In this document: positions 3,804 to 48,226 of the stretch, in pieces
Layout: the number at the start of each line of letters is the position of its first letter
Numbering within the stretch: the stretch's first letter is position 1
NCBI GenBank assembly: GCA_041559015.1
Contig: JBFFED010000002.1
Coordinates: 1,027-65,026, forward strand
DNA: 64,000 nucleotides
DNA from: Thermoplasmata archaeon
GTDB taxonomy: Archaea > Thermoplasmatota > Thermoplasmata > UBA10834
Reading direction: 5' to 3'
Position numbers and translations under genes: made by a program
Notes under the pieces: generated by a model
Databases searched by the model: none
Seen by the model: the letters and a program-made list of their open reading frames with translations, nothing else
What the model was told of the DNA's origin: nothing

Positions 3804-5051
3804 CTAGTCACGTCCGCCCTTGTAGTATCTGTTGTTCTCCAGGGTCACTGTCTCAGCGGGGTCATCCTTCCCCCTGCGGGAGATGTACAGCGCGCTGACG
3901 CCGCTACCGATGACGGCGCCGCCTACGAGGATCCCCGCGGCGACGGACATGACGGATGAGCCGAATATCCCACCGTCCTCAGGAGGTCGGATCACTCCGC
4001 CATCGCCTCCTCCGGTCGCGGCCGACGCGAAGATGCCCAGGCTGGGATCCAGCGAGATTGCGGCCACGTCCCTGTCTATCGGCGATGAGAGGTAGAGTCT
4101 GAGGCACTCTCCGTCCGTGCCGTAGTGCGCGGTCGAGTCGGCAAGTGAGCTGTTTCCGGCCGACCAGTTCAGCATTATCTTGTTCGCCCAGGCGAAGTAG
4201 CCCATGGGCACCCCGTCCTCGACGAACGCGAACATCTGTTCCTCGGTCTGCCGGTACTGGAACTTGTGCACGATCGGTGAGGTGCCGTTCGTCTCGTTCA
4301 CGGCAGGGTCGCTGGTGGTGACGCCACTTGACTGATAGCCATAGAACCGATATGGTTCGTCGCTTGGCGCGATGACCATGCTGCCTGCCTCCATCACGCA
4401 CAGGTTCATCTCGACCGCAAGCCTGTTGACATAGATCATCTTGTTGAGCCTCAACACCATGTCGAACTTCATCTCCGTGGACCCGTTGACGTCGATCTGA
4501 TGGTCGGAGAACCCGGGATAGGCTGCAACCCGGTTGTCTGTTGATACCTGGAATGTGAACTGGACCTCTGCCCACTCATGGATGATTTCGACTCCTGGCT
4601 GAGCAGTGGTGCCAGTGCCGGTGGTGCTCCCCGGGAGGCGCTTGGTCATGTCGACCACCGCCCTCAGGGCGACTGTCACCGCGCTGCCCTTCTCACTGGT
4701 CGTCTTCGAGGGACCTACGACCTCCCAGGAGACGCCCTCCAACGAAGCCTGATATGCCCAGTCGGCGAAGGGATTCTCAGCGGTCTCGCTCACATTGTAG
4801 CCGATGAATGAGGAGACCGTGAAGCCGTATCCGTTGCCCGAGGAATCATCGGCCGCCCGAATCATGCCTGATGGCTGGAGCTTCGAGATGTCGATGGTCG
4901 CGTTCTCAGTCGCGATGGTGATGCCGTCAGCATCCTCATCATATACGATATCCATCTCCGTGGCGTCCGCTGGGAAAGACGGTAGTGCCGAACCGGCGGC
5001 GAACAGCAAGAATGCTGTTCCGATGGCCGCCAGAACCCATCGTGCGAGCAT
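3804..5051 (-). CDS. Secreted, C-terminally membrane-anchored surface protein
   Basis: Signal-like MLARWVLAAIGTAFLLFAAGSA; C-terminal TM helix and short basic tail. Confidence 0.7.
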   Translation of the reverse strand: MLARWVLAAIGTAFLLFAAGSALPSFPADATEMDIVYDEDADGITIATENATIDISKLQPSGMIRAADDSSGNGYGFTVSSFIGYNVSETAENPFADWAYQASLEGVSWEVVGPSKTTSEKGSAVTVALRAVVDMTKRLPGSTTGTGTTAQPGVEIIHEWAEVQFTFQVSTDNRVAAYPGFSDHQIDVNGSTEMKFDMVLRLNKMIYVNRLAVEMNLCVMEAGSMVIAPSDEPYRFYGYQSSGVTTSDPAVNETNGTSPIVHKFQYRQTEEQMFAFVEDGVPMGYFAWANKIMLNWSAGNSSLADSTAHYGTDGECLRLYLSSPIDRDVAAISLDPSLGIFASAATGGGDGGVIRPPEDGGIFGSSVMSVAAGILVGGAVIGSGVSALYISRRGKDDPAETVTLENNRYYKGGRD

Positions 5052-5507
5052 CGCAATTGAGCATCTCACTGTTGTTAGATAAGCGATTTGGTACGAGTTT
5101 AGAAAGACCGGGCCTCTTGAGGACGGGGGGCCGGAGCCATCGGTCCGCCTGTCAGAATCCTTCACGTCTGGCTCCCCCGCGCTGTCCAAGCGGATCTCGG
5201 AACCCTGGTGTGCGGTTCTCGGACTCCACATCGTCATCACGCGTCGGAATATAGCGCCGTTATATCGGAAAGCGTCATGGTGAGGTCGTCTGCATGCGAC
5301 TTTGCGAGCATAGCCGTCAATCTGGCACTGCTGGGCATGATCGGCCAACGGCTGAACTGGCAATATTGGTGTCGGGGTGCTGTGGCGAGAACCCGTGCTC
5401 CCTCGAGTACGGCACAATCGCCGATCGCGGTCTTCCGCTGCCCGCCGCCGTCAATCCTGGCAACCTATACTCAATTCTTATCAACCCGTTCGCCAATCAC
5501 CTGAAGC

Positions 5508-6797
5508 ATGTCAATCGACCCCAAGCTCCTCAGGCGCGTCAGAAGGGAATTCCCGGCAATCGAGCACGACCCTTCGGGGCGCAAGAGGGCTTTCCTTGAC
5601 AACGGCGCTGGAACGCTGGTGACGAAGAGGAGCGCCGAAGCAGAGGCCAGAGCTAGGATGGACTGGAGCGCCAATGTGGGCAACTACTTCCCGGAATCGC
5701 AGGGCGCCGGGCAGACGATTCTGGAGGGCAGGCGCGCGGTCGCAGACTTCCTCAGGGCCGAGGGGCCGGAGACGATAATCTCCGGGGAGTCGTGCACGAG
5801 CCTGCTCTTCGGGCTCAGCTACGCGATGAGCCGGACCCTGACCGGCAAGGAGAACATCGTTGTCACTGGGTACGAGCACTACGCTAACATGAACCCGTGG
5901 GCTGAGCTCGGCGGCATGGGCTTGATAGAGCAGCTCAAGCTTGCGAAGTTCCACTTGAACTCCGGCTACCTGGACATGGAGGAGTACAAGCAGCTGGTCG
6001 ACAAGAACACCAAGATAGTGTCCGTAGCCGCAGCATCGAACGTGCTCGGGACGCGCTCACATCTCCACGAGATGTGCAAGATAGCCCACGAGGCCGGCGC
6101 ACTCTTCTTCGTGGATGCGGTCCACCATGCCGCCCATGCCCCGACCGATGTGAAGAAGATGGGCTGCGACGCGCTCGTCTTCTCAGGCTACAAGCTCTTC
6201 TCGCGGCACGGCAGCTTCATGTATCTCAAGCCTGAGCTGATCGAGAAGCTCAATCCCTACAAGGTAGACCCTTCCCCGAAGCACGGACCTGAGAAGTGGG
6301 AGATGGGCACCAGGGACCAGGCGATGTTCGCAGCCATCAAGGGGGCGATAGACTACATCGCGTGGCTCGCCAACCCGTCCTCCAGAACGCCCCTGAAGCC
6401 TGGCCCGCAGAGGAGCGCCAAGCTGAGGCAGGCCATGGAGATTATAGAGGCATATGAGAAGGACCTGACGAGGATAGTGCTCGACGGCTACGGCAAGCTG
6501 CTCGGGCTCAGGTACATCAGGAGCCTGACCCTGTACGGTCCCAACGAGATCCACAAGAAGGTCGGCAGGGACCCGACATTCGCGTTCAAGCTCGCGGGCT
6601 ACGACGACCACGAGCTCTCGAAGATACTCTGGGACAAGTACGGGCTCGCCGTTGGCGCGGAGGACTACTACTCGAGCGTGCCCGCGCTGTACGGCGCCAA
6701 GACGATGTCCAGGGCGACACTCGTGCACTACAACACGAAGGATGAGGCGCAGGCCCTCCTGAAGGCCCTGAACGAACTCTCAGAGAAAAAGAAGTAG
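5508..6797 (+). CDS. Class V PLP aminotransferase, cysteine-desulfurase-like
   Basis: FLDNGAGT, DAVHHAAH, FSGYK PLP lysine. Confidence 0.85.
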   Translation: MSIDPKLLRRVRREFPAIEHDPSGRKRAFLDNGAGTLVTKRSAEAEARARMDWSANVGNYFPESQGAGQTILEGRRAVADFLRAEGPETIISGESCTSLLFGLSYAMSRTLTGKENIVVTGYEHYANMNPWAELGGMGLIEQLKLAKFHLNSGYLDMEEYKQLVDKNTKIVSVAAASNVLGTRSHLHEMCKIAHEAGALFFVDAVHHAAHAPTDVKKMGCDALVFSGYKLFSRHGSFMYLKPELIEKLNPYKVDPSPKHGPEKWEMGTRDQAMFAAIKGAIDYIAWLANPSSRTPLKPGPQRSAKLRQAMEIIEAYEKDLTRIVLDGYGKLLGLRYIRSLTLYGPNEIHKKVGRDPTFAFKLAGYDDHELSKILWDKYGLAVGAEDYYSSVPALYGAKTMSRATLVHYNTKDEAQALLKALNELSEKKK

Positions 6798-6838
6798 AGA
6801 GGAATAAATCGAGAGGGAAGGGGTTTAGGGTCGCGGAA

Positions 6839-8314
6839 CTACTTCTTGTTGTAGTACTTGGACCACTCGCCTGGCTGTGAGGAGATGGTCTTCTCGTAGT
6901 TCTGCTGTACCTTCTGGCCCGGCTTCTTGCCGCTCATGAGGACTGCCACGACCGCGACCACTACCACGATGGCGATCACCGCCGCTGCCATCAGCACGAA
7001 CACGGGTATGTCGGGTCCGGTGTCGGTAGAGATGTCCACGAGTGCCTCGGACTCGAATGTCGGGTCGTGGTTGATGAGCGCGCCGCCTGGGAACGCCATC
7101 CCGCCGAGGACGGCGAAGCCCGCGAACACTGCCTTGTTGGGTCCGACCGCAACGATCGGAACGCCGGCCATCACCTGCGCGTGTAGCTGCTCCTGGACCC
7201 CGTCCACCTCGACGTCGGTCACCCAGTGCATCGCCCCGATCTTCGACCACTCACCGTCGAAGGCAAGCCTGTTCTGAGTGAGGGTCCTAATCTTGTCTGG
7301 CTCCAGCACGCCCAAGGACTCGTTCACCCGGAGCTCGGTCGAAGTGCCCTCGTTGGCAGTCATCGCGCCGTTCTCGTTCATCGTGCGGACCATGTTCATC
7401 TCCATCCAGGCAGCCCTGACTGGAGACATCCAGTTCCCGACGATCGCGCCGAACTCCAGCAGCAGCGTCTTGTTGACGGTGTTGTCAGCGTCGAAGTCCC
7501 AGCCCTCGATCTGCTGGTCCCACTTCATGTCGTACTTGATCACCTTGCCGGCGACCTGGAAGTCCTCGATCTTCTCAGTGCCATAGAACGCCATCGTCCC
7601 CAGGGGGCCCTTGGTCACGGTGATCCTGTACTGCGGGAGTGTCTCGTTGTTCATCTGGACCATATTCGCTTCCAGGTGGAAGGACAGCTTCATCGTGTTC
7701 AGCATGTCGTCCCCGACCGCTCCGCTGTAGTCCTTCAGCGGAACGTACGGTAGGTCCGTCGCTGTCAGGTCGAAGGTCCAGTTCTTGGAGTAGTCAGTCT
7801 CGGCGTACACGACCTCCGACTGCGTCCACGAGGTCTTCAGGTCGGCCTTCTTGTAGATCGGTTCATCGCCGGAGTAGACGCCCGTGAAGTTGCCAAGCGC
7901 GAACAGCCTCTGGTATGCCAGGATGCCGTTCCCGTCGACATCGCTGAACTCGACCAGTGAGTCGAGTTTCACTGCGTACATCGTGTAGACCTTGATTGGG
8001 TGGTCGGCCTCTACGAGCTCTCCGTCCCGGTCGTACACCTGCGCCACGCCAAGGTATCTCGCCTTGATCGCGACGAAGTACACGTTGTTCTCATTCGTCT
8101 CGTTGCCCCAAACTACGCCGAAAGCGGCGTCCGTCCCGAACTTGACGAAGAAGTGGTCCCCTCCGCCGAGTATGTCGGTCCCGCCAGTCTCGGTCTCGAG
8201 CTGGTCAGTGAGCACGATCGGGCCTGCGGACGCCATGGAAGGGATGGCGAACATCCCCATGAGCATCATGGCCACGACCGCCACGCCAGCACTCGCGGTT
8301 CTCTTTGCGTTCAT
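6839..8314 (-). CDS. Secreted, C-terminally membrane-anchored surface protein
   Basis: GGAGGTG RBS before MNAKRTASAG; signal peptide; DVDGNG motif; C-terminal TM helix. Confidence 0.75.
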   Translation of the reverse strand: MNAKRTASAGVAVVAMMLMGMFAIPSMASAGPIVLTDQLETETGGTDILGGGDHFFVKFGTDAAFGVVWGNETNENNVYFVAIKARYLGVAQVYDRDGELVEADHPIKVYTMYAVKLDSLVEFSDVDGNGILAYQRLFALGNFTGVYSGDEPIYKKADLKTSWTQSEVVYAETDYSKNWTFDLTATDLPYVPLKDYSGAVGDDMLNTMKLSFHLEANMVQMNNETLPQYRITVTKGPLGTMAFYGTEKIEDFQVAGKVIKYDMKWDQQIEGWDFDADNTVNKTLLLEFGAIVGNWMSPVRAAWMEMNMVRTMNENGAMTANEGTSTELRVNESLGVLEPDKIRTLTQNRLAFDGEWSKIGAMHWVTDVEVDGVQEQLHAQVMAGVPIVAVGPNKAVFAGFAVLGGMAFPGGALINHDPTFESEALVDISTDTGPDIPVFVLMAAAVIAIVVVVAVVAVLMSGKKPGQKVQQNYEKTISSQPGEWSKYYNKK

Positions 8315-8629
8315 CTTCTTTCGCACCTCCTTGGTGTTTTCTGAGATTACAATTGTCAGTCGAGGGTATATGAATGCGGGGTGGTCTTTTGCACTGCTTT
8401 TGTGGTGCCTCAAATCCCGCATCAACGACACGAGCCAGATGTCTACCATGATGGTGTTCGGTATTTAAGCCGCCGCCCCCGCCACAGGTCGCCGAGAGAG
8501 GCGTGTGGCCGCGGATCCGCGATGCCGTGTATGCGCTGTCCGCAGATGTGTGTGTTATCTGGGAGTGAGAAAGAGCATGAGGTTCGGGTTTGACACGATG
8601 ATACGAGAGAGGCTGTGGCCCAATCGCCT

Positions 8630-11821: not shown

Positions 11822-14800
11822 TCAACGCACATTTCTCACAAGAAACTCGGCTATCCCGTACCCTGTCCGGCCGTCGAACTCATATTTGGAGAGAGTCTCG
11901 TACATGATCGCCGAGCCGTAGCCCTCATGCCCCGTGAATGGCAGCTTGACCGTCTTGATGACCTTCGCCGTCATCACATGGGAGCCTCCGAGCTTGTCGT
12001 GGAGGACCATGCTGAGGCCAGTGGGGGCGCCCTCAGAGTCGTGGTCGGTCTCCACCTCCGCCTTCACGATGGGCAGGTTTCTCCCGTCCAGGCGCACGAA
12101 CCCTGCGTCGACGACTCCGTCATCCGCGAACAGCTTGGTCACGTTCATCGCCACATCCTCTGAGAACTGGGCCGCAAGCCATATCCACATCGTCGGCGCT
12201 ATCCAGTTCCTGACCCCCCACGAGTGGTCCCTCTCCCCAAGGGCTTCTATCTTGTACTCCCTGCCTCCCACCACCAACCTACCAGTCAGCTTCCCGCACT
12301 GCTCGGTGTGCTCCGAGGCGGTCATCTTGGATAGCCTGATGTCCTCCTCGCTTACGCAGTCTCTGTAGTTGAAGATCGTGTGGAGAGACTCGAATTCCAG
12401 GCTCATCGAAACGTGGGTCTTCGGTTGCCTCTCTGCAGCCAGCCCGGCCAGATCCCCATCGTACTCTATTCTCCACTTCCTCTCGGGGACCAGCTTCTCG
12501 TAGCGAAGGCCGTTCGTCCTCAGGTCGGAGTCCTTGAAGGACTCCGCGGCCATGGTGCCGATGTCGGAGCCATCCGGCATCATGAGGAAGAAGAACATGC
12601 TCTTCTCGTCCCTGTTCGGCTTGAGCCCTATCCTCATGAAGCCGCAGATGTCCTTCTTCCTGTCGTAGAAATTGAAGTAGAAGCTTTCGTTCCAGTCAAG
12701 GTGCTCCCCGAACTCGTGAACGACATCAGTGTCCTCATCGGCCGCGCCGTCGTGCACCAGCAGGATGCCCTCGCCCCCGTCTATGGTGACCCTCTGCCCA
12801 GTGCTCAGGATGGTCGTGGCATTCCGGACTGCGGTCACTGCGGGTATCCCGTACTCCCTCGACACGACCGCACCGTGACACAGTATCCCGCCTGTCTCGG
12901 TCACGAGCCCCCCTATCTTCGCGAAGACGGCGGTCCAGCCAGGATCGGTATTCGAGGTCACGAGTATGTCGCCCTCCCTCACCTCCGAGACGTGGTCGAT
13001 GGAGTGCACGACCCTGACAGGCCCCGTCACGAGACCTGGGCTCGAGGAGGTCCCGGATATCCTCGTGACCGACTCTTCATGGACGAGCGTGTCGTCGAAC
13101 TCCAGCCCGCCTTTGAGGAACTTCGGAGGAAGGGAATTCGTGTATCTGTCGAACTCTCTCCTCCTCCGCTCTATGGCATTCTGGTCCGCCTTCCCCACCC
13201 CAGAGGCGATTCCGAAGACCTCCTCCTTCGAGAGGAAGAATATGTCCTCCTGCCGCCGGATGATCCCATCGGCCGCGAACCTCCTTCCGTATTCGAGGAA
13301 CAGCCTTCGCCAGCGTAATATCTGGTGGTCGAGGTAGAACCTCTGGTTCTCCCTGAACATCAGATATGTCTGCGCGAACCGCATGATGGTCTTGAACACG
13401 CGCTTCTTCAGGAACCCATACCTGAGCCTCGAGATCCTAGCCAGAACCTCCTTCTCGGCCAGGAGCCGCTCATCGTGCCTCTTCCTCTCCATCTCCTCGA
13501 GGTTCAGGCGAGTGGAGGACACGAGGGCCTTGAGGGCGTCAACGATGAGGCGAGGATCCTCGGACCATCTCGGGAAATACATCTCCCGAGTGTGGGACCT
13601 GTGCCCGTACTCGACCATGAACGAATCGAACGCCTTCGCGAAGCTGGCTAGGTCCGTCCGAGTCCTGATGTCCATCAGGAACGCCTCCGATGTCTTGGAC
13701 GCAAGCGCCTCCCTGACCGCGGGGCTTATCCTCGCCATCTTCGCCAGCCGCTCTATCGCGATGTTCGTCTTGATGGTCTTATTGTCCCCGAGGCCGGAGA
13801 CGAGTCTGGAATACAGGGTGCCGGTCCTGTCCCCGAGCCAGTCACTCAGCCATCTCTTGGTCATGAGGTTCATGCCGATGCTGTGGGTGACCATTCCGTA
13901 TCTGATCAGGCGGTAGTGCTTGAGTTGCGCTCGCTCGATGTGACGGAACTCAGCGCTCAGCTCAGGCCCGCTCAGCCCGGTGAGGTCCTTCGCGTCGAAG
14001 TCCTTCATCTCCTCCATGAATCGCTCGGCCCATTCTTTGTACGCCTTATCCGTCCTGATGATCATTCCGTCGGGATCGAGCAGGGCGACCCTCAACTCCG
14101 AGAACAACCTGGGGATCAGCTTCGCGGGCTCCTCGGCTATCCTAGCTTGGTCCCTCTCAGGGAAGTAGTTGAGTAGCTCCTTGGTCCTGGAGAACCTGGG
14201 GTTGTAGGAGAATACTTCCTCCAGGACCGCGCTGTTGAAGTAGACGTGCCCCTTGTGCACTCTCAGGAGCTCCCTGCCGGCGATTCCCTTGTAACCCAGG
14301 ATCCTCGAACCCTCATGGTTCACGTACTTGGTGAGGTACTCGCCAAGGAGCGAGAAGAACAGTGGGGAAGTCACGTCCGCCCAGTACTCATCCCCGTAGC
14401 CTCTCGTCCACAGGGTCTCGTCCTTGGCAACCATCTTGGTGACCGGCCTTGCCTGGAGGACCAGTATGCCCTCCCCATCGAGCGCCCACTCGACGTCTTG
14501 AGGTCGCCCGAAGAGCGCTTCCACCTTCAGGCCTATCTTCGCGAGCGCTCTTATCTCGTCATCGGTGAGGGACGGCTGGACCTGCCTGTCGCCCTCCACG
14601 CTCACATCCGCCTTCCCGTGCTCGGACATGACCACGGCTAAGGTCTTCTTCGCGATGCTCCTCTGGGTCACCGCGAGAGTCCTCTTATCGCACTCGAACC
14701 TGTCAGGGCTTGCCTTGCCGGACGCGATGGACTCGCCGAGCCCCCAGCCCGACTCGATTATCATGACGCCCTTCCTGTTCCTGACCGGGTCGGTCGTGAA

Positions 14801-15373
14801 GAGCACCCCGGAACACTTTGCGTCGACCATCCGCTGTATCACCACGGCTATGCCGTGTGCAAGGTGGTCTATGCCAACTTCGTGCCTGTATGATATCGCG
14901 CGCGCGTTCCAGTAAGAGGCCCAGCACCTTCGCACGCAGTCCGCCACGTCCTCAGGGCGAACGCATAGGAATGAGTCCTGCTGTCCCGCGAAGGATGCCT
15001 CGGGGAGGTCCTCCGCAGTAGCGGATGATCGGACCGCCCAGAGCGAATCGGCCCCTGCAGTGAGGACGCTGGAGGCGACGGTCTCCCCAAGCTCAGGGTC
15101 GAGGGGCGTGGAGATGATCCCGTCCTTGATCCTCTCTGAGCATCTTGCGATCGCCGCTTCGTCTTTATAATCGAGCCCCCTCAGACAATCGGAGATCAGA
15201 GCGCTCAGGGCCTCCTGATTCAAGGCAGACCAATACGCATCCACTGTCACCACGACGCCTTCGGGGACCGGGAATCCCGCCAAGAAGAGCTTGGCTAGGT
15301 TGGCTGCCTTGCCCCCCGTCCTTGATGTGGTGCTGCAATCGGGGTCAGAAAGATGCAGGACTATCTCGCCCAT
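11822..15373 (-). CDS. PEP-utilising ATP-grasp/His-swivel phosphotransferase (RPH-like architecture) with extra C-terminal domain
   Basis: GGKAANL, AVRSSATAEDLPEASFAGQQDSFL, TETGGILCHGAVVSREYGIPAV; ~270 aa C-terminal domain starting near WNESFYFNFYD. Confidence 0.8.
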   Translation of the reverse strand: MGEIVLHLSDPDCSTTSRTGGKAANLAKLFLAGFPVPEGVVVTVDAYWSALNQEALSALISDCLRGLDYKDEAAIARCSERIKDGIISTPLDPELGETVASSVLTAGADSLWAVRSSATAEDLPEASFAGQQDSFLCVRPEDVADCVRRCWASYWNARAISYRHEVGIDHLAHGIAVVIQRMVDAKCSGVLFTTDPVRNRKGVMIIESGWGLGESIASGKASPDRFECDKRTLAVTQRSIAKKTLAVVMSEHGKADVSVEGDRQVQPSLTDDEIRALAKIGLKVEALFGRPQDVEWALDGEGILVLQARPVTKMVAKDETLWTRGYGDEYWADVTSPLFFSLLGEYLTKYVNHEGSRILGYKGIAGRELLRVHKGHVYFNSAVLEEVFSYNPRFSRTKELLNYFPERDQARIAEEPAKLIPRLFSELRVALLDPDGMIIRTDKAYKEWAERFMEEMKDFDAKDLTGLSGPELSAEFRHIERAQLKHYRLIRYGMVTHSIGMNLMTKRWLSDWLGDRTGTLYSRLVSGLGDNKTIKTNIAIERLAKMARISPAVREALASKTSEAFLMDIRTRTDLASFAKAFDSFMVEYGHRSHTREMYFPRWSEDPRLIVDALKALVSSTRLNLEEMERKRHDERLLAEKEVLARISRLRYGFLKKRVFKTIMRFAQTYLMFRENQRFYLDHQILRWRRLFLEYGRRFAADGIIRRQEDIFFLSKEEVFGIASGVGKADQNAIERRRREFDRYTNSLPPKFLKGGLEFDDTLVHEESVTRISGTSSSPGLVTGPVRVVHSIDHVSEVREGDILVTSNTDPGWTAVFAKIGGLVTETGGILCHGAVVSREYGIPAVTAVRNATTILSTGQRVTIDGGEGILLVHDGAADEDTDVVHEFGEHLDWNESFYFNFYDRKKDICGFMRIGLKPNRDEKSMFFFLMMPDGSDIGTMAAESFKDSDLRTNGLRYEKLVPERKWRIEYDGDLAGLAAERQPKTHVSMSLEFESLHTIFNYRDCVSEEDIRLSKMTASEHTEQCGKLTGRLVVGGREYKIEALGERDHSWGVRNWIAPTMWIWLAAQFSEDVAMNVTKLFADDGVVDAGFVRLDGRNLPIVKAEVETDHDSEGAPTGLSMVLHDKLGGSHVMTAKVIKTVKLPFTGHEGYGSAIMYETLSKYEFDGRTGYGIAEFLVRNVR

Positions 15374-15581
15374 CTTATCACACGCGATTCACTCCGACAG
15401 TGAGCCTGTCATTGCCGTGTTCACGAGATAGACTTGCCTGGCGATTAAAGCTGTCTCCTTGCTGCTCGGATGACGGAGGCGTATCCACCTGGCCGGTATA
15501 AGGGATCTTTCTCGGTGCCGATCTCTCCTGACCTGTCGGGCAAGAGTATTTCAGTGCGACTACGTATTTCAACCGCCGAAG

Positions 15582-36737: not shown

Positions 36738-36812
36738 TGGTGGACCGGGCGAGATTTGAACTCGCGACCTCTCGCATGCCAAGCGAGCGATCTGCCGCTG
36801 ATCTACCGGCCC
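36738..36812 (-). tRNA. tRNA-Ala(GGC), CCA encoded
   Basis: Cloverleaf GGGCCGG/CCGGTCC with G3-U70; anticodon arm CTCGC-TTGGCAT-GCGAG; T arm GCGAG-TTCAAAT-CTCGC. Confidence 0.97.
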
Positions 36813-48117: not shown

Positions 48118-48226
48118 TGGTGTCGGGGACGGGGTTCGAACCCGTGACCTCCGGATTTCTTAGGAGCGCGTGGTCAGGCGATTCTCCCTATGAGTCCGAC
48201 GCTCCACCAGGCTGAGCCACCCCGAC
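48118..48226 (-). tRNA. tRNA with CAT anticodon (probably elongator Met), 32-nt intron at 48157-48188
   Basis: Acceptor GTCGGGG/CCCCGAC; TCGGA-CTCATA|intron|A-TCCGG; T arm with TTCGAAC loop; CCA encoded. Confidence 0.92.

Follow-up and report, generated by a model that had tools for sequence, protein, structure and literature searches.

What chemistry would call for a phospho-histidine dikinase and a two-barrel domain in one polypeptide? The question is raised by a gene (11822..15373, minus strand) in a stretch of 64,000 nucleotides, hereafter the window, from contig JBFFED010000002.1 of a Thermoplasmata archaeon (assembly GCA_041559015.1). Its open reading frame (ORF) is open throughout and encodes 1183 amino acids (aa) plus a stop codon. 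The original prediction, made from the letters alone, described a dikinase resembling rifampin phosphotransferase (RPH) with an extra C-terminal domain. On balance, we consider it likely that the fused protein is a single-chain, AMP-forming, ATP-dependent dehydratase, which would phosphorylate an alcohol by way of a phospho-histidine and then eliminate the phosphate. Dehydration of unactivated alcohols is chemically hard, and the kinase-plus-lyase answer to it is recent, having been described for the anaerobic breakdown of cholesterol. Nothing else ties the two halves together as strongly as the fused form does.

An RPH-type dikinase and a lyase-like domain

Pfam assigns to the protein, in this order, PPDK_N (E 1e-86), PEP-utilizers (E 9e-24), DUF7065 (E 5.5e-19) and DUF7064 (E 1.9e-16), and no domain to a helical stretch of ~450 aa between PPDK_N and the swivel (Table 1). 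The PEP/pyruvate TIM barrel (PF02896; PEP, phosphoenolpyruvate) was not found in the 1183-aa protein by the same search. The order is therefore ATP-grasp, central domain and swivel, as in RPH and PigC, and the original prediction was right to prefer these enzymes to PEP synthase as models.

The best solved relatives of residues 1-873 are the Listeria RPH structures (profile E 2e-142; Foldseek against 5hv1, E 4e-42 over 906 columns at 27% identity). All residues of RPH-Lm required for both half-reactions, as shown by Stogios et al. (PMC4844700), have aligned equivalents in the fused protein, and these are invariant or nearly so in 17 fused sequences, apart from position 134 (Ser here, Thr in most). 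Because the catalytic residues of both half-reactions are kept in the fused sequences, the protein is very probably active, as a phosphotransferase with the architecture of RPH. Curated NCBIfam scores all reach about half of the respective cut-off or less, be it for the RPH equivalogs NF041857 and NF000283 (467.7 bits against 999 and 342.3 against 1700), the PEP synthase model TIGR01418 (386 against 740) or the PigC and RedH equivalogs (384.9 against 1300 and 386.7 against 1350); the PEP synthase model PRK06464 is missed as well (397 against 598). The central domain alone obtains 78 bits against the RPH equivalog and no more than 96 bits against any model. No other part of the protein is as well conserved, however: identity is 84% to the fused relative L004, and orthologues in other phyla share 50-64% of its residues, compared with 40-50% in the ATP-grasp domain. 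A separate canonical PEP synthase (PpsA-like) is encoded in the same genome, on contig C7. Domain content and curated cut-offs rule out a housekeeping PEP synthase, a true RPH, PigC or RedH, and, judged by sequence, the protein is an orthologue of none of the four.

Both C-terminal Pfam domains score well above their gathering thresholds (DUF7065, 69.4 bits against 27; DUF7064, 60.9 against 24.7). When the single sequence was compared by phmmer with the sequences of the PDB, 25-phosphosteroid lyase (25-PSL; 9fzn/9g2i/9g4c) was the sole match (E 3.9e-4), and a profile of 40 sequences brought the E-value to 8.5e-13. An AlphaFold2 (AF2) model of the domain, built on this 40-sequence alignment (pLDDT 92, pTM 0.90), was compared with the PDB by Foldseek: the first five matches are 25-PSL (E 6e-16, TMq 0.72-0.75), and the fungal decalin Diels-Alderases CghA, Fsa2 and Phm7 (E 4e-9 and weaker), AttH (2ich, E 8e-9, TM 0.64-0.66) and kievitone hydratase (7a0t, E 5e-8) are also found. 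Tocopherol-cyclase structures are absent from the Foldseek matches to the PDB, and neither CrtC and Lipocalin_9 (PF07143, PF17186) nor tocopherol cyclase (PF14249) gives a Pfam match even at E <= 1. The likeness to AttH/CrtC/tocopherol-cyclase barrels that the original prediction had drawn, and for which it had proposed a structural search, thus holds at the level of the superfold, which the AttH and kievitone hydratase matches recover, and fails at that of the family, 25-PSL being closer by both profile and fold. The motifs it had quoted were found at residues 894-904 (WNESFYFNFYD), 914-920 (RIGLKPN) and 1046-1057 (GERDHSWGVRNW); the domain itself is present, and spans ~300 aa from residue ~881-890 rather than ~270 aa from residue ~910.

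The chemistry to be expected changes with this assignment, since the closest relative is 25-PSL and not AttH/CrtC. The segment R1048-D1049-H-S-W-G-V-R1055 is invariant in 40 archaeal sequences, and 25-PSL has SRDRSWGVR at the aligned position. In 66 diverse representatives of the family, this RD.SWG.R motif is at least 90% conserved, as are H886, E896, S897 and H1022, all of them in the DUF7065 half, and E1176; W894, F900, W967, W1052, W1063 and W1065 are invariant aromatic residues of the domain. In the 9g4c chain of 25-PSL, crystallised with phosphate and product, an Asn replaces the Asp of the motif; from the titles of the PDB entries and this D-to-N chain, we infer that the depositors regard the Asp as catalytic. 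The cut-off of the Rv3169 family (NCBIfam NF053593) is missed (67.7 bits against 150). By analogy with 25-PSL, the C-terminal domain would most likely consume the phosphoester made by the kinase part and eliminate its phosphate, a role as a mere lipid-binding or hydratase barrel being less likely.

Fused and split forms in their genomic setting

Eight sequences, drawn from NCBI, JGI and Logan assemblies, make up the 90%-identity cluster of the protein; in seven the length is exactly 1183 aa. The same four-domain architecture recurs in 16 more clusters from metagenome-assembled genomes of Thermoplasmatota (1119-1228 aa), at 48-79% identity (53-79% overall). In the order to which the window belongs, four other genomes have the lyase part within an open frame of 1186-1207 aa, one more has it cut by a contig end, and in 12 genomes it occupies a frame of 301-339 aa. 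Since separate assemblies and further clusters carry the same architecture, the fusion is not an artefact of assembly; the loss of a stop codon in this assembly, a possibility raised by the original prediction, is ruled out by the independent assemblies with the same 1183-aa protein and by the clade of fused orthologues.

When the C-terminal 304 aa were searched against 1.84 billion representatives, 1165 relatives were returned, the nearest of which are free-standing proteins of ~300 aa (38-48% identity). The survey of the distribution that had been suggested, a scan of one genome per prokaryotic species with close sequences, yielded 80 archaeal loci and recovered both a fused clade and split orthologues in many archaea. 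In about 60 of these loci, a lyase gene of ~300 aa lies directly downstream, on the same strand, of an orthologue of residues 1-873. Most of the 20 split loci that were checked have the stop codon of the dikinase and the candidate start codon of the lyase overlapping or no more than ~10 nt apart, and the two genes appear from their sequences to be translationally coupled in most archaeal carriers. The two codons fall within the region that corresponds to the junction of the fused protein (residues 874-890), where the linker from swivel to barrel is short (~8-10 residues) and model confidence is low at 876-884. Carriers of the module include Methanomassiliicoccales, Methanofastidiosa, Methanocella and Methanobacterium, as well as Methanomethylicia/Methanosuratincola, Conexivisphaerales and various Thermoplasmata.

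Among the 80 archaeal loci, a fusion like that of the window is confined to four (L004, L005, L029 and L037). A maximum-likelihood tree built for the lyase domain unites the window with L004 and L005 in a supported fused clade (99/94), whose sister pair is split, and places the other two fused sequences elsewhere. Fused sequences being scattered in the tree, at least two fusion or fission events have taken place. The dikinase subfamily occurs in 12 of 48 genomes of the window's order, and the lyase is present in all 12; in the genus of the window, the lyase domain is matched in 7 of 19 genomes, in one case by a mere fragment. Because it is patchy even within a genus, the module looks like an accessory, self-contained and laterally mobile unit.

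Pieces of the dikinase are also joined to DUF7065/64 in other ways, as ATP-grasp+DUF7065/64 (P0036, P0061) and as swivel+DUF7065/64 (P0171, P0172), and these proteins represent independent fusions. The swivel+lyase architecture is documented by P0171 and P0172, longer members of the cluster, and not by P0165, which was discarded as a fragment from a contig of 1.4 kb. P0171 (726 aa, on an ENA contig of 2.9 kb) is GC-rich and bacterial-looking, and combines HTH_11, WYL, the tail of a dikinase central domain, a His swivel and DUF7065/64. Two explanations may apply, namely a fusion of the phosphotransfer-lyase unit with a regulator that senses a ligand, or a chimera of gene calling.

The lyase is also found on its own. 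Divergent paralogues (39-44% identity) occur in six genomes devoid of this dikinase subfamily (G312, G337, G338, G341, G343 and G347), where they presumably use another phosphoryl donor. An in-frame TGA in the lyase frame of G343 and G304 suggests a pseudogene or a sequencing error. Four loci (L006, L031, L040 and L078) have a lyase gene of ~300 aa without an upstream dikinase, within the usual synteny block of Methanomassiliicoccales (NAD kinase, IMPase-like gene), which points to a secondary loss or relocation of the kinase.

In the window, the fused gene is monocistronic, with a divergent Na+/H+ exchanger gene upstream and a convergent regulator gene downstream (Table 1). A TTTAAT box ~75 nt 5' of the ATG, within the upstream intergenic region, may be an archaeal TATA element. 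The regulator is retained in eight related loci (L004, L005, L032, L033, L036, L040, L064 and L084), where it adjoins fused as well as split forms of the module; its retention may reflect lineage synteny or regulation of the module. The same eight loci keep, beyond the regulator, a 536-aa ORF (6839-8449 in the window, minus strand) that has no Pfam match and whose relatives have a signal-like N-terminal segment and a C-terminal membrane anchor. Its product is probably a surface protein. A 537-aa ORF (3804-5417, minus strand), also without a Pfam match, is not paralogous to it. Further away, a tRNA match at 48121-48226 (minus strand) is 106 nt long against a model of 71 positions, and is likely an archaeal tRNA with an intron; another tRNA, at 36741-36812, is ordinary.

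Table 1. Position of the fused gene, its parts and adjacent features in the window.
Feature	Position	Strand	Remark
Fused gene	11822..15373	-	1183 aa + stop
ATP-grasp nucleotide-binding domain (PPDK_N, residues 18-316)	14426..15322	-	
K22	15308-15310	-	RPH-Lm Lys22 by alignment
R115	15029-15031	-	RPH-Lm Arg117 by alignment
S134	14972-14974	-	RPH-Lm Thr136 by alignment
Helical central (acceptor-substrate) domain, residues ~320-770	13064..14416	-	Precomputed Pfam label PF27448 Rph_4th
R674-E675	13349-13354	-	RPH-Lm Arg666-Glu667 by alignment
R678	13340-13342	-	RPH-Lm Lys670 by alignment
Phospho-histidine swivel domain (PEP-utilizers, residues 799-869)	12767..12979	-	
H833, carrier histidine	12875-12877	-	RPH-Lm His825 by alignment
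Junction/linker, residues 874-890	12704..12754	-	HDGAADEDTDVVHEFGE
DUF7065 half of the 25-PSL-like two-barrel domain, residues 881-1055	12209..12733	-	
Motif R1048-D1049-H-S-W1052-G-V-R1055	12209-12232	-	In the DUF7065 half
DUF7064 half, residues 1060-1177	11843..12196	-	C-terminal conserved G-Y-G-x-x-E1176, common to 25-PSL
Regulator, HTH_Crp / AAA_16 (NB-ARC-like STAND) / TPR, 915 aa	9017..11764	+	Tail-to-tail with the fused gene
Upstream intergenic region	15374..15581		208 nt; common to the fused gene and the divergent Na+/H+ exchanger gene

Proposed reaction, alternatives and substrate

What the sequences themselves show is how the protein is built, that its catalytic residues are kept, what its two parts are homologous to, and that these parts are obligately coupled in genomes. 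The reaction proposed on this basis, that of an ATP-dependent dehydratase, would involve three steps. First, as in RPH, the ATP-grasp domain would bind ATP and pass its beta-phosphate to His833 of the swivel, with release of AMP and inorganic phosphate. Second, again on the model of RPH, the swivel would deliver the phosphate into the helical central domain, and there the invariant pair Arg674-Glu675 would position it for transfer to a hydroxyl of the bound, probably hydrophobic, substrate. Finally, as in 25-PSL, the phosphoester would move to the C-terminal two-barrel domain, where the R-D-x-S-W-G-x-R centre would bind the phosphate and promote its leaving, most likely to give a C=C double bond, that is, a net loss of water paid for by ATP. 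The logic has a precedent in Sterolibacterium, in which a kinase and a lyase together accomplish the ATP-dependent dehydration of a tertiary alcohol (PMC8449060, PMC7411048). The earlier suggestion of a bifunctional enzyme, as yet uncharacterised, with a hydrophobic substrate is supported as well.

Several points weigh against this reading. The dikinase subfamily and the archaeal DUF7065/64 proteins have no biochemically characterised member. Identity to 25-PSL is just 18-20%, and 25-PSL itself differs at sites that are near-invariant in the family (Asp for E896, Arg for S897 and Arg for H1022). In nature, 25-PSL is paired with an APH-type kinase and not with a dikinase (PMC8449060). A model of the full-length protein has a pTM of 0.45, too low to judge channelling from the central to the lyase domain, and the neighbourhoods, in which all ORFs of 81 loci were clustered, gave no clue to the substrate, neighbours being housekeeping or unrelated genes. 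Haloferax PspR, an RPH-like archaeal protein, is reported to be a DNA-binding repressor (PMC10948481). Lastly, the superfold also holds hydratases (AttH/Hgs, kievitone hydratase) and pericyclases, and a reaction other than elimination is possible.

One such alternative inverts the order of events: a barrel of the AttH/CrtC/Hgs type would hydrate an isoprenoid double bond, and the RPH-like part would trap the tertiary alcohol as a phosphoester end product. The fold likeness to AttH (2ich, E 8e-9) and kievitone hydratase (E 5e-8) is in keeping with it, and a precedent is provided by Hgs, an AttH-like hydratase that makes hydroxylated glycerol dialkyl glycerol tetraether lipids (hydroxy-GDGT) in archaea (bioRxiv 10.1101/2025.10.20.683597). 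We nevertheless hold hydration followed by phosphorylation to be unlikely, since 25-PSL is clearly nearer than any hydratase by sequence and by fold, Pfam CrtC and Lipocalin_9 find no match at E <= 1, and the common conserved centre is the RD.SWG.R of a phosphate-eliminating enzyme. Another alternative keeps the activation by phosphate and changes its outcome, the barrel using the carbocation or electrophile, in the manner of PigC or of a terpene synthase, to form a C-C or C-heteroatom bond or to close a ring. PigC and RedH, of the same phosphotransferase superfamily, do use a phosphate leaving group for condensation, the superfold includes the pericyclases CghA, Fsa2 and Phm7, and the many invariant aromatic residues would suit the stabilisation of a cation. 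Coupling or cyclisation is still improbable here, because the PigC and RedH scores (385 against 1300 and 387 against 1350) are far under the cut-offs, no genes for a second substrate or for a biosynthetic pathway are conserved nearby, and the nearest characterised relative performs a plain elimination.

A protein without catalytic function, its RPH-like part being a PspR-like DNA- or ligand-binding regulator and its barrel a lipocalin-like ligand sensor, has very little to recommend it, even though RPH-like PspR was reported to bind DNA without having rifampicin phosphotransferase activity (PMC10948481). The phosphotransfer residues and the lyase motif are invariant over 17 fused sequences that share 53-79% identity, and the control genome of Haloferax volcanii has no DUF7065, so that PspR-type proteins fall outside the module. 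It is scarcely credible that the gene simply encodes the PEP synthase of the cell or an RPH conferring resistance to rifamycins, the C-terminal domain being an appendage of no relevance: homologues are automatically annotated as 'pyruvate, water dikinase' or 'PEP-utilizing enzyme' and the NCBIfam models of PEP synthase and RPH match at E 1e-115 to 2e-146, but the PEP/pyruvate TIM barrel is lacking, equivalog scores are about half of the cut-offs or less, the central domain stays at or below 96 bits against any model, a canonical PEP synthase is encoded on another contig, and archaeal RNA polymerase is not known to be a target of rifamycins.

Under the preferred reading of phosphorylation followed by elimination, the alcohol would most plausibly be a tertiary one, or one unreactive for another reason, and belong to an isoprenoid-like lipid or to an exogenous hydrophobic compound. 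Isoprenoid-type alcohols appear the most plausible class because of the hydrophobic barrel superfold, the tertiary-alcohol chemistry of the relatives and the precedent of Hgs on GDGT chains; an exogenous toxic or nutrient alcohol would fit the patchy distribution of the module, which resembles that of resistance genes. Neighbouring genes were also considered. In Methanomassiliicoccales, the genes that recur nearby have housekeeping functions (NAD kinase, IMPase-like, Kae1, fibrillarin and RecJ-like); in the window's clade, recurrence is limited to the STAND/TPR regulator and a secreted protein, and fused relatives adjoin Trp operon, CorA and PHP genes. McrA was sought in the window's genome as a link to methanogenesis and was not found; neither was a gene of the CrtC/AttH family in the same genome, an absence that weighs neither for nor against a reversal of Hgs-type hydration. 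A role as a component of anti-phage defence was set aside, PADLOC giving no match.

In locus L084, a 497-aa B12-binding radical-SAM enzyme (5340-6833, minus strand) is encoded two genes upstream of the fused gene (P0011). Archaeal lipid methylases and the GDGT desaturase Ted belong to this class. No such gene was seen among the ORFs scanned near the fused gene of the window.

A more ambitious reading, to which we attach little probability, is that the fused and split forms together constitute a widespread archaeal class of phospho-histidine (AMP-forming) dikinase-lyase dehydratases that desaturate the cell's own hydroxy-GDGT- or hydroxyarchaeol-type lipids at their tertiary hydroxyls. If so, the Hgs and Has hydratases would have in them an irreversible, ATP-driven counterpart, and membranes would be remodelled anaerobically by a new route.

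Comparison with known systems

The fused protein invites comparison with five groups of enzymes. First, RPH-Lm of Listeria monocytogenes (PDB 5FBS/5FBT/5FBU, 5HV1-5HV6; PMC4844700) has the same order of three domains and matching catalytic residues. Overall identity is 22-27%, the central domain being weakly similar and forming a highly conserved archaeal subfamily of its own; the fused protein contains, or in its split form is coupled to, a lyase-like domain of ~300 aa that RPH lacks, and a rifamycin is implausible as a substrate in archaea. Second, the prodiginine ligases PigC, RedH and HapC, together with the HpeHI and phenylphosphate synthase dikinases (PMC12167813), belong to the same ATP-grasp + His-swivel superfamily and phosphorylate oxygen atoms of small molecules instead of pyruvate. 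Scores are far under the family cut-offs, and those enzymes have no 25-PSL-like partner. Third, AttH NE1406 (2ICH), kievitone hydratase (7A0T), CrtC and Hgs share the superfold with the C-terminal domain and have no match to it at the sequence level. AttH-like hydratases add water without ATP, uncoupled to kinases; as they act on tertiary carbons of isoprenoid chains, isoprenoid alcohols are plausible substrates for the fused protein.

Fourth, ACAD10/ACAD11 (PMC11342911) and class III/IV lanthipeptide synthetases (PMC13504147) phosphorylate a hydroxyl and eliminate the phosphate to leave a double bond, all with one polypeptide. Their folds are unrelated (APH or Ser/Thr kinase; ACAD or OspF-type lyase) and their substrates different. 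Finally, 25-PSL and the 25-hydroxysteroid kinase (25-HSK) of Sterolibacterium denitrificans offer a parallel (9fzn, 9g2i, 9g4c; PMC8449060, PMC7411048). The C-terminal domain shares with 25-PSL the two-barrel fold, RD.SWG.R and GYG..E, it is likewise tied genetically to an ATP-using phosphotransferase, and the proposed logic of phosphorylation followed by elimination is the same. The partner is here a His-swivel dikinase, which would release AMP and inorganic phosphate, and there an APH-type kinase that yields ADP; the two activities reside here in one chain or in overlapping genes of an operon, whereas the genes of Sterolibacterium are unlinked; and the archaeal host has no sign of steroid catabolism.

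A dikinase-lyase pair or fusion was found in no paper by the literature search, the C-terminal domains are still DUFs in Pfam, and the labels given at source are 'PEP synthase' or 'PEP-utilizing enzyme'. As a module, the pair is self-contained and conserved over several archaeal phyla, and its fusion lends a testable function to DUF7065 and DUF7064, to the very conserved RPH-like central domain, and to hundreds of archaeal genes mislabelled "PEP synthase". Should the enzyme turn out to act on a lipid of archaea or on a compound common in the environment, a new ATP-dependent step would be added to archaeal metabolism, and the single-chain form is convenient for biochemical and structural work. 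What these comparisons leave as known is the ATP-dependent dehydration by a kinase and a phosphate lyase; what is new is the use of a dikinase as the phosphoryl donor.

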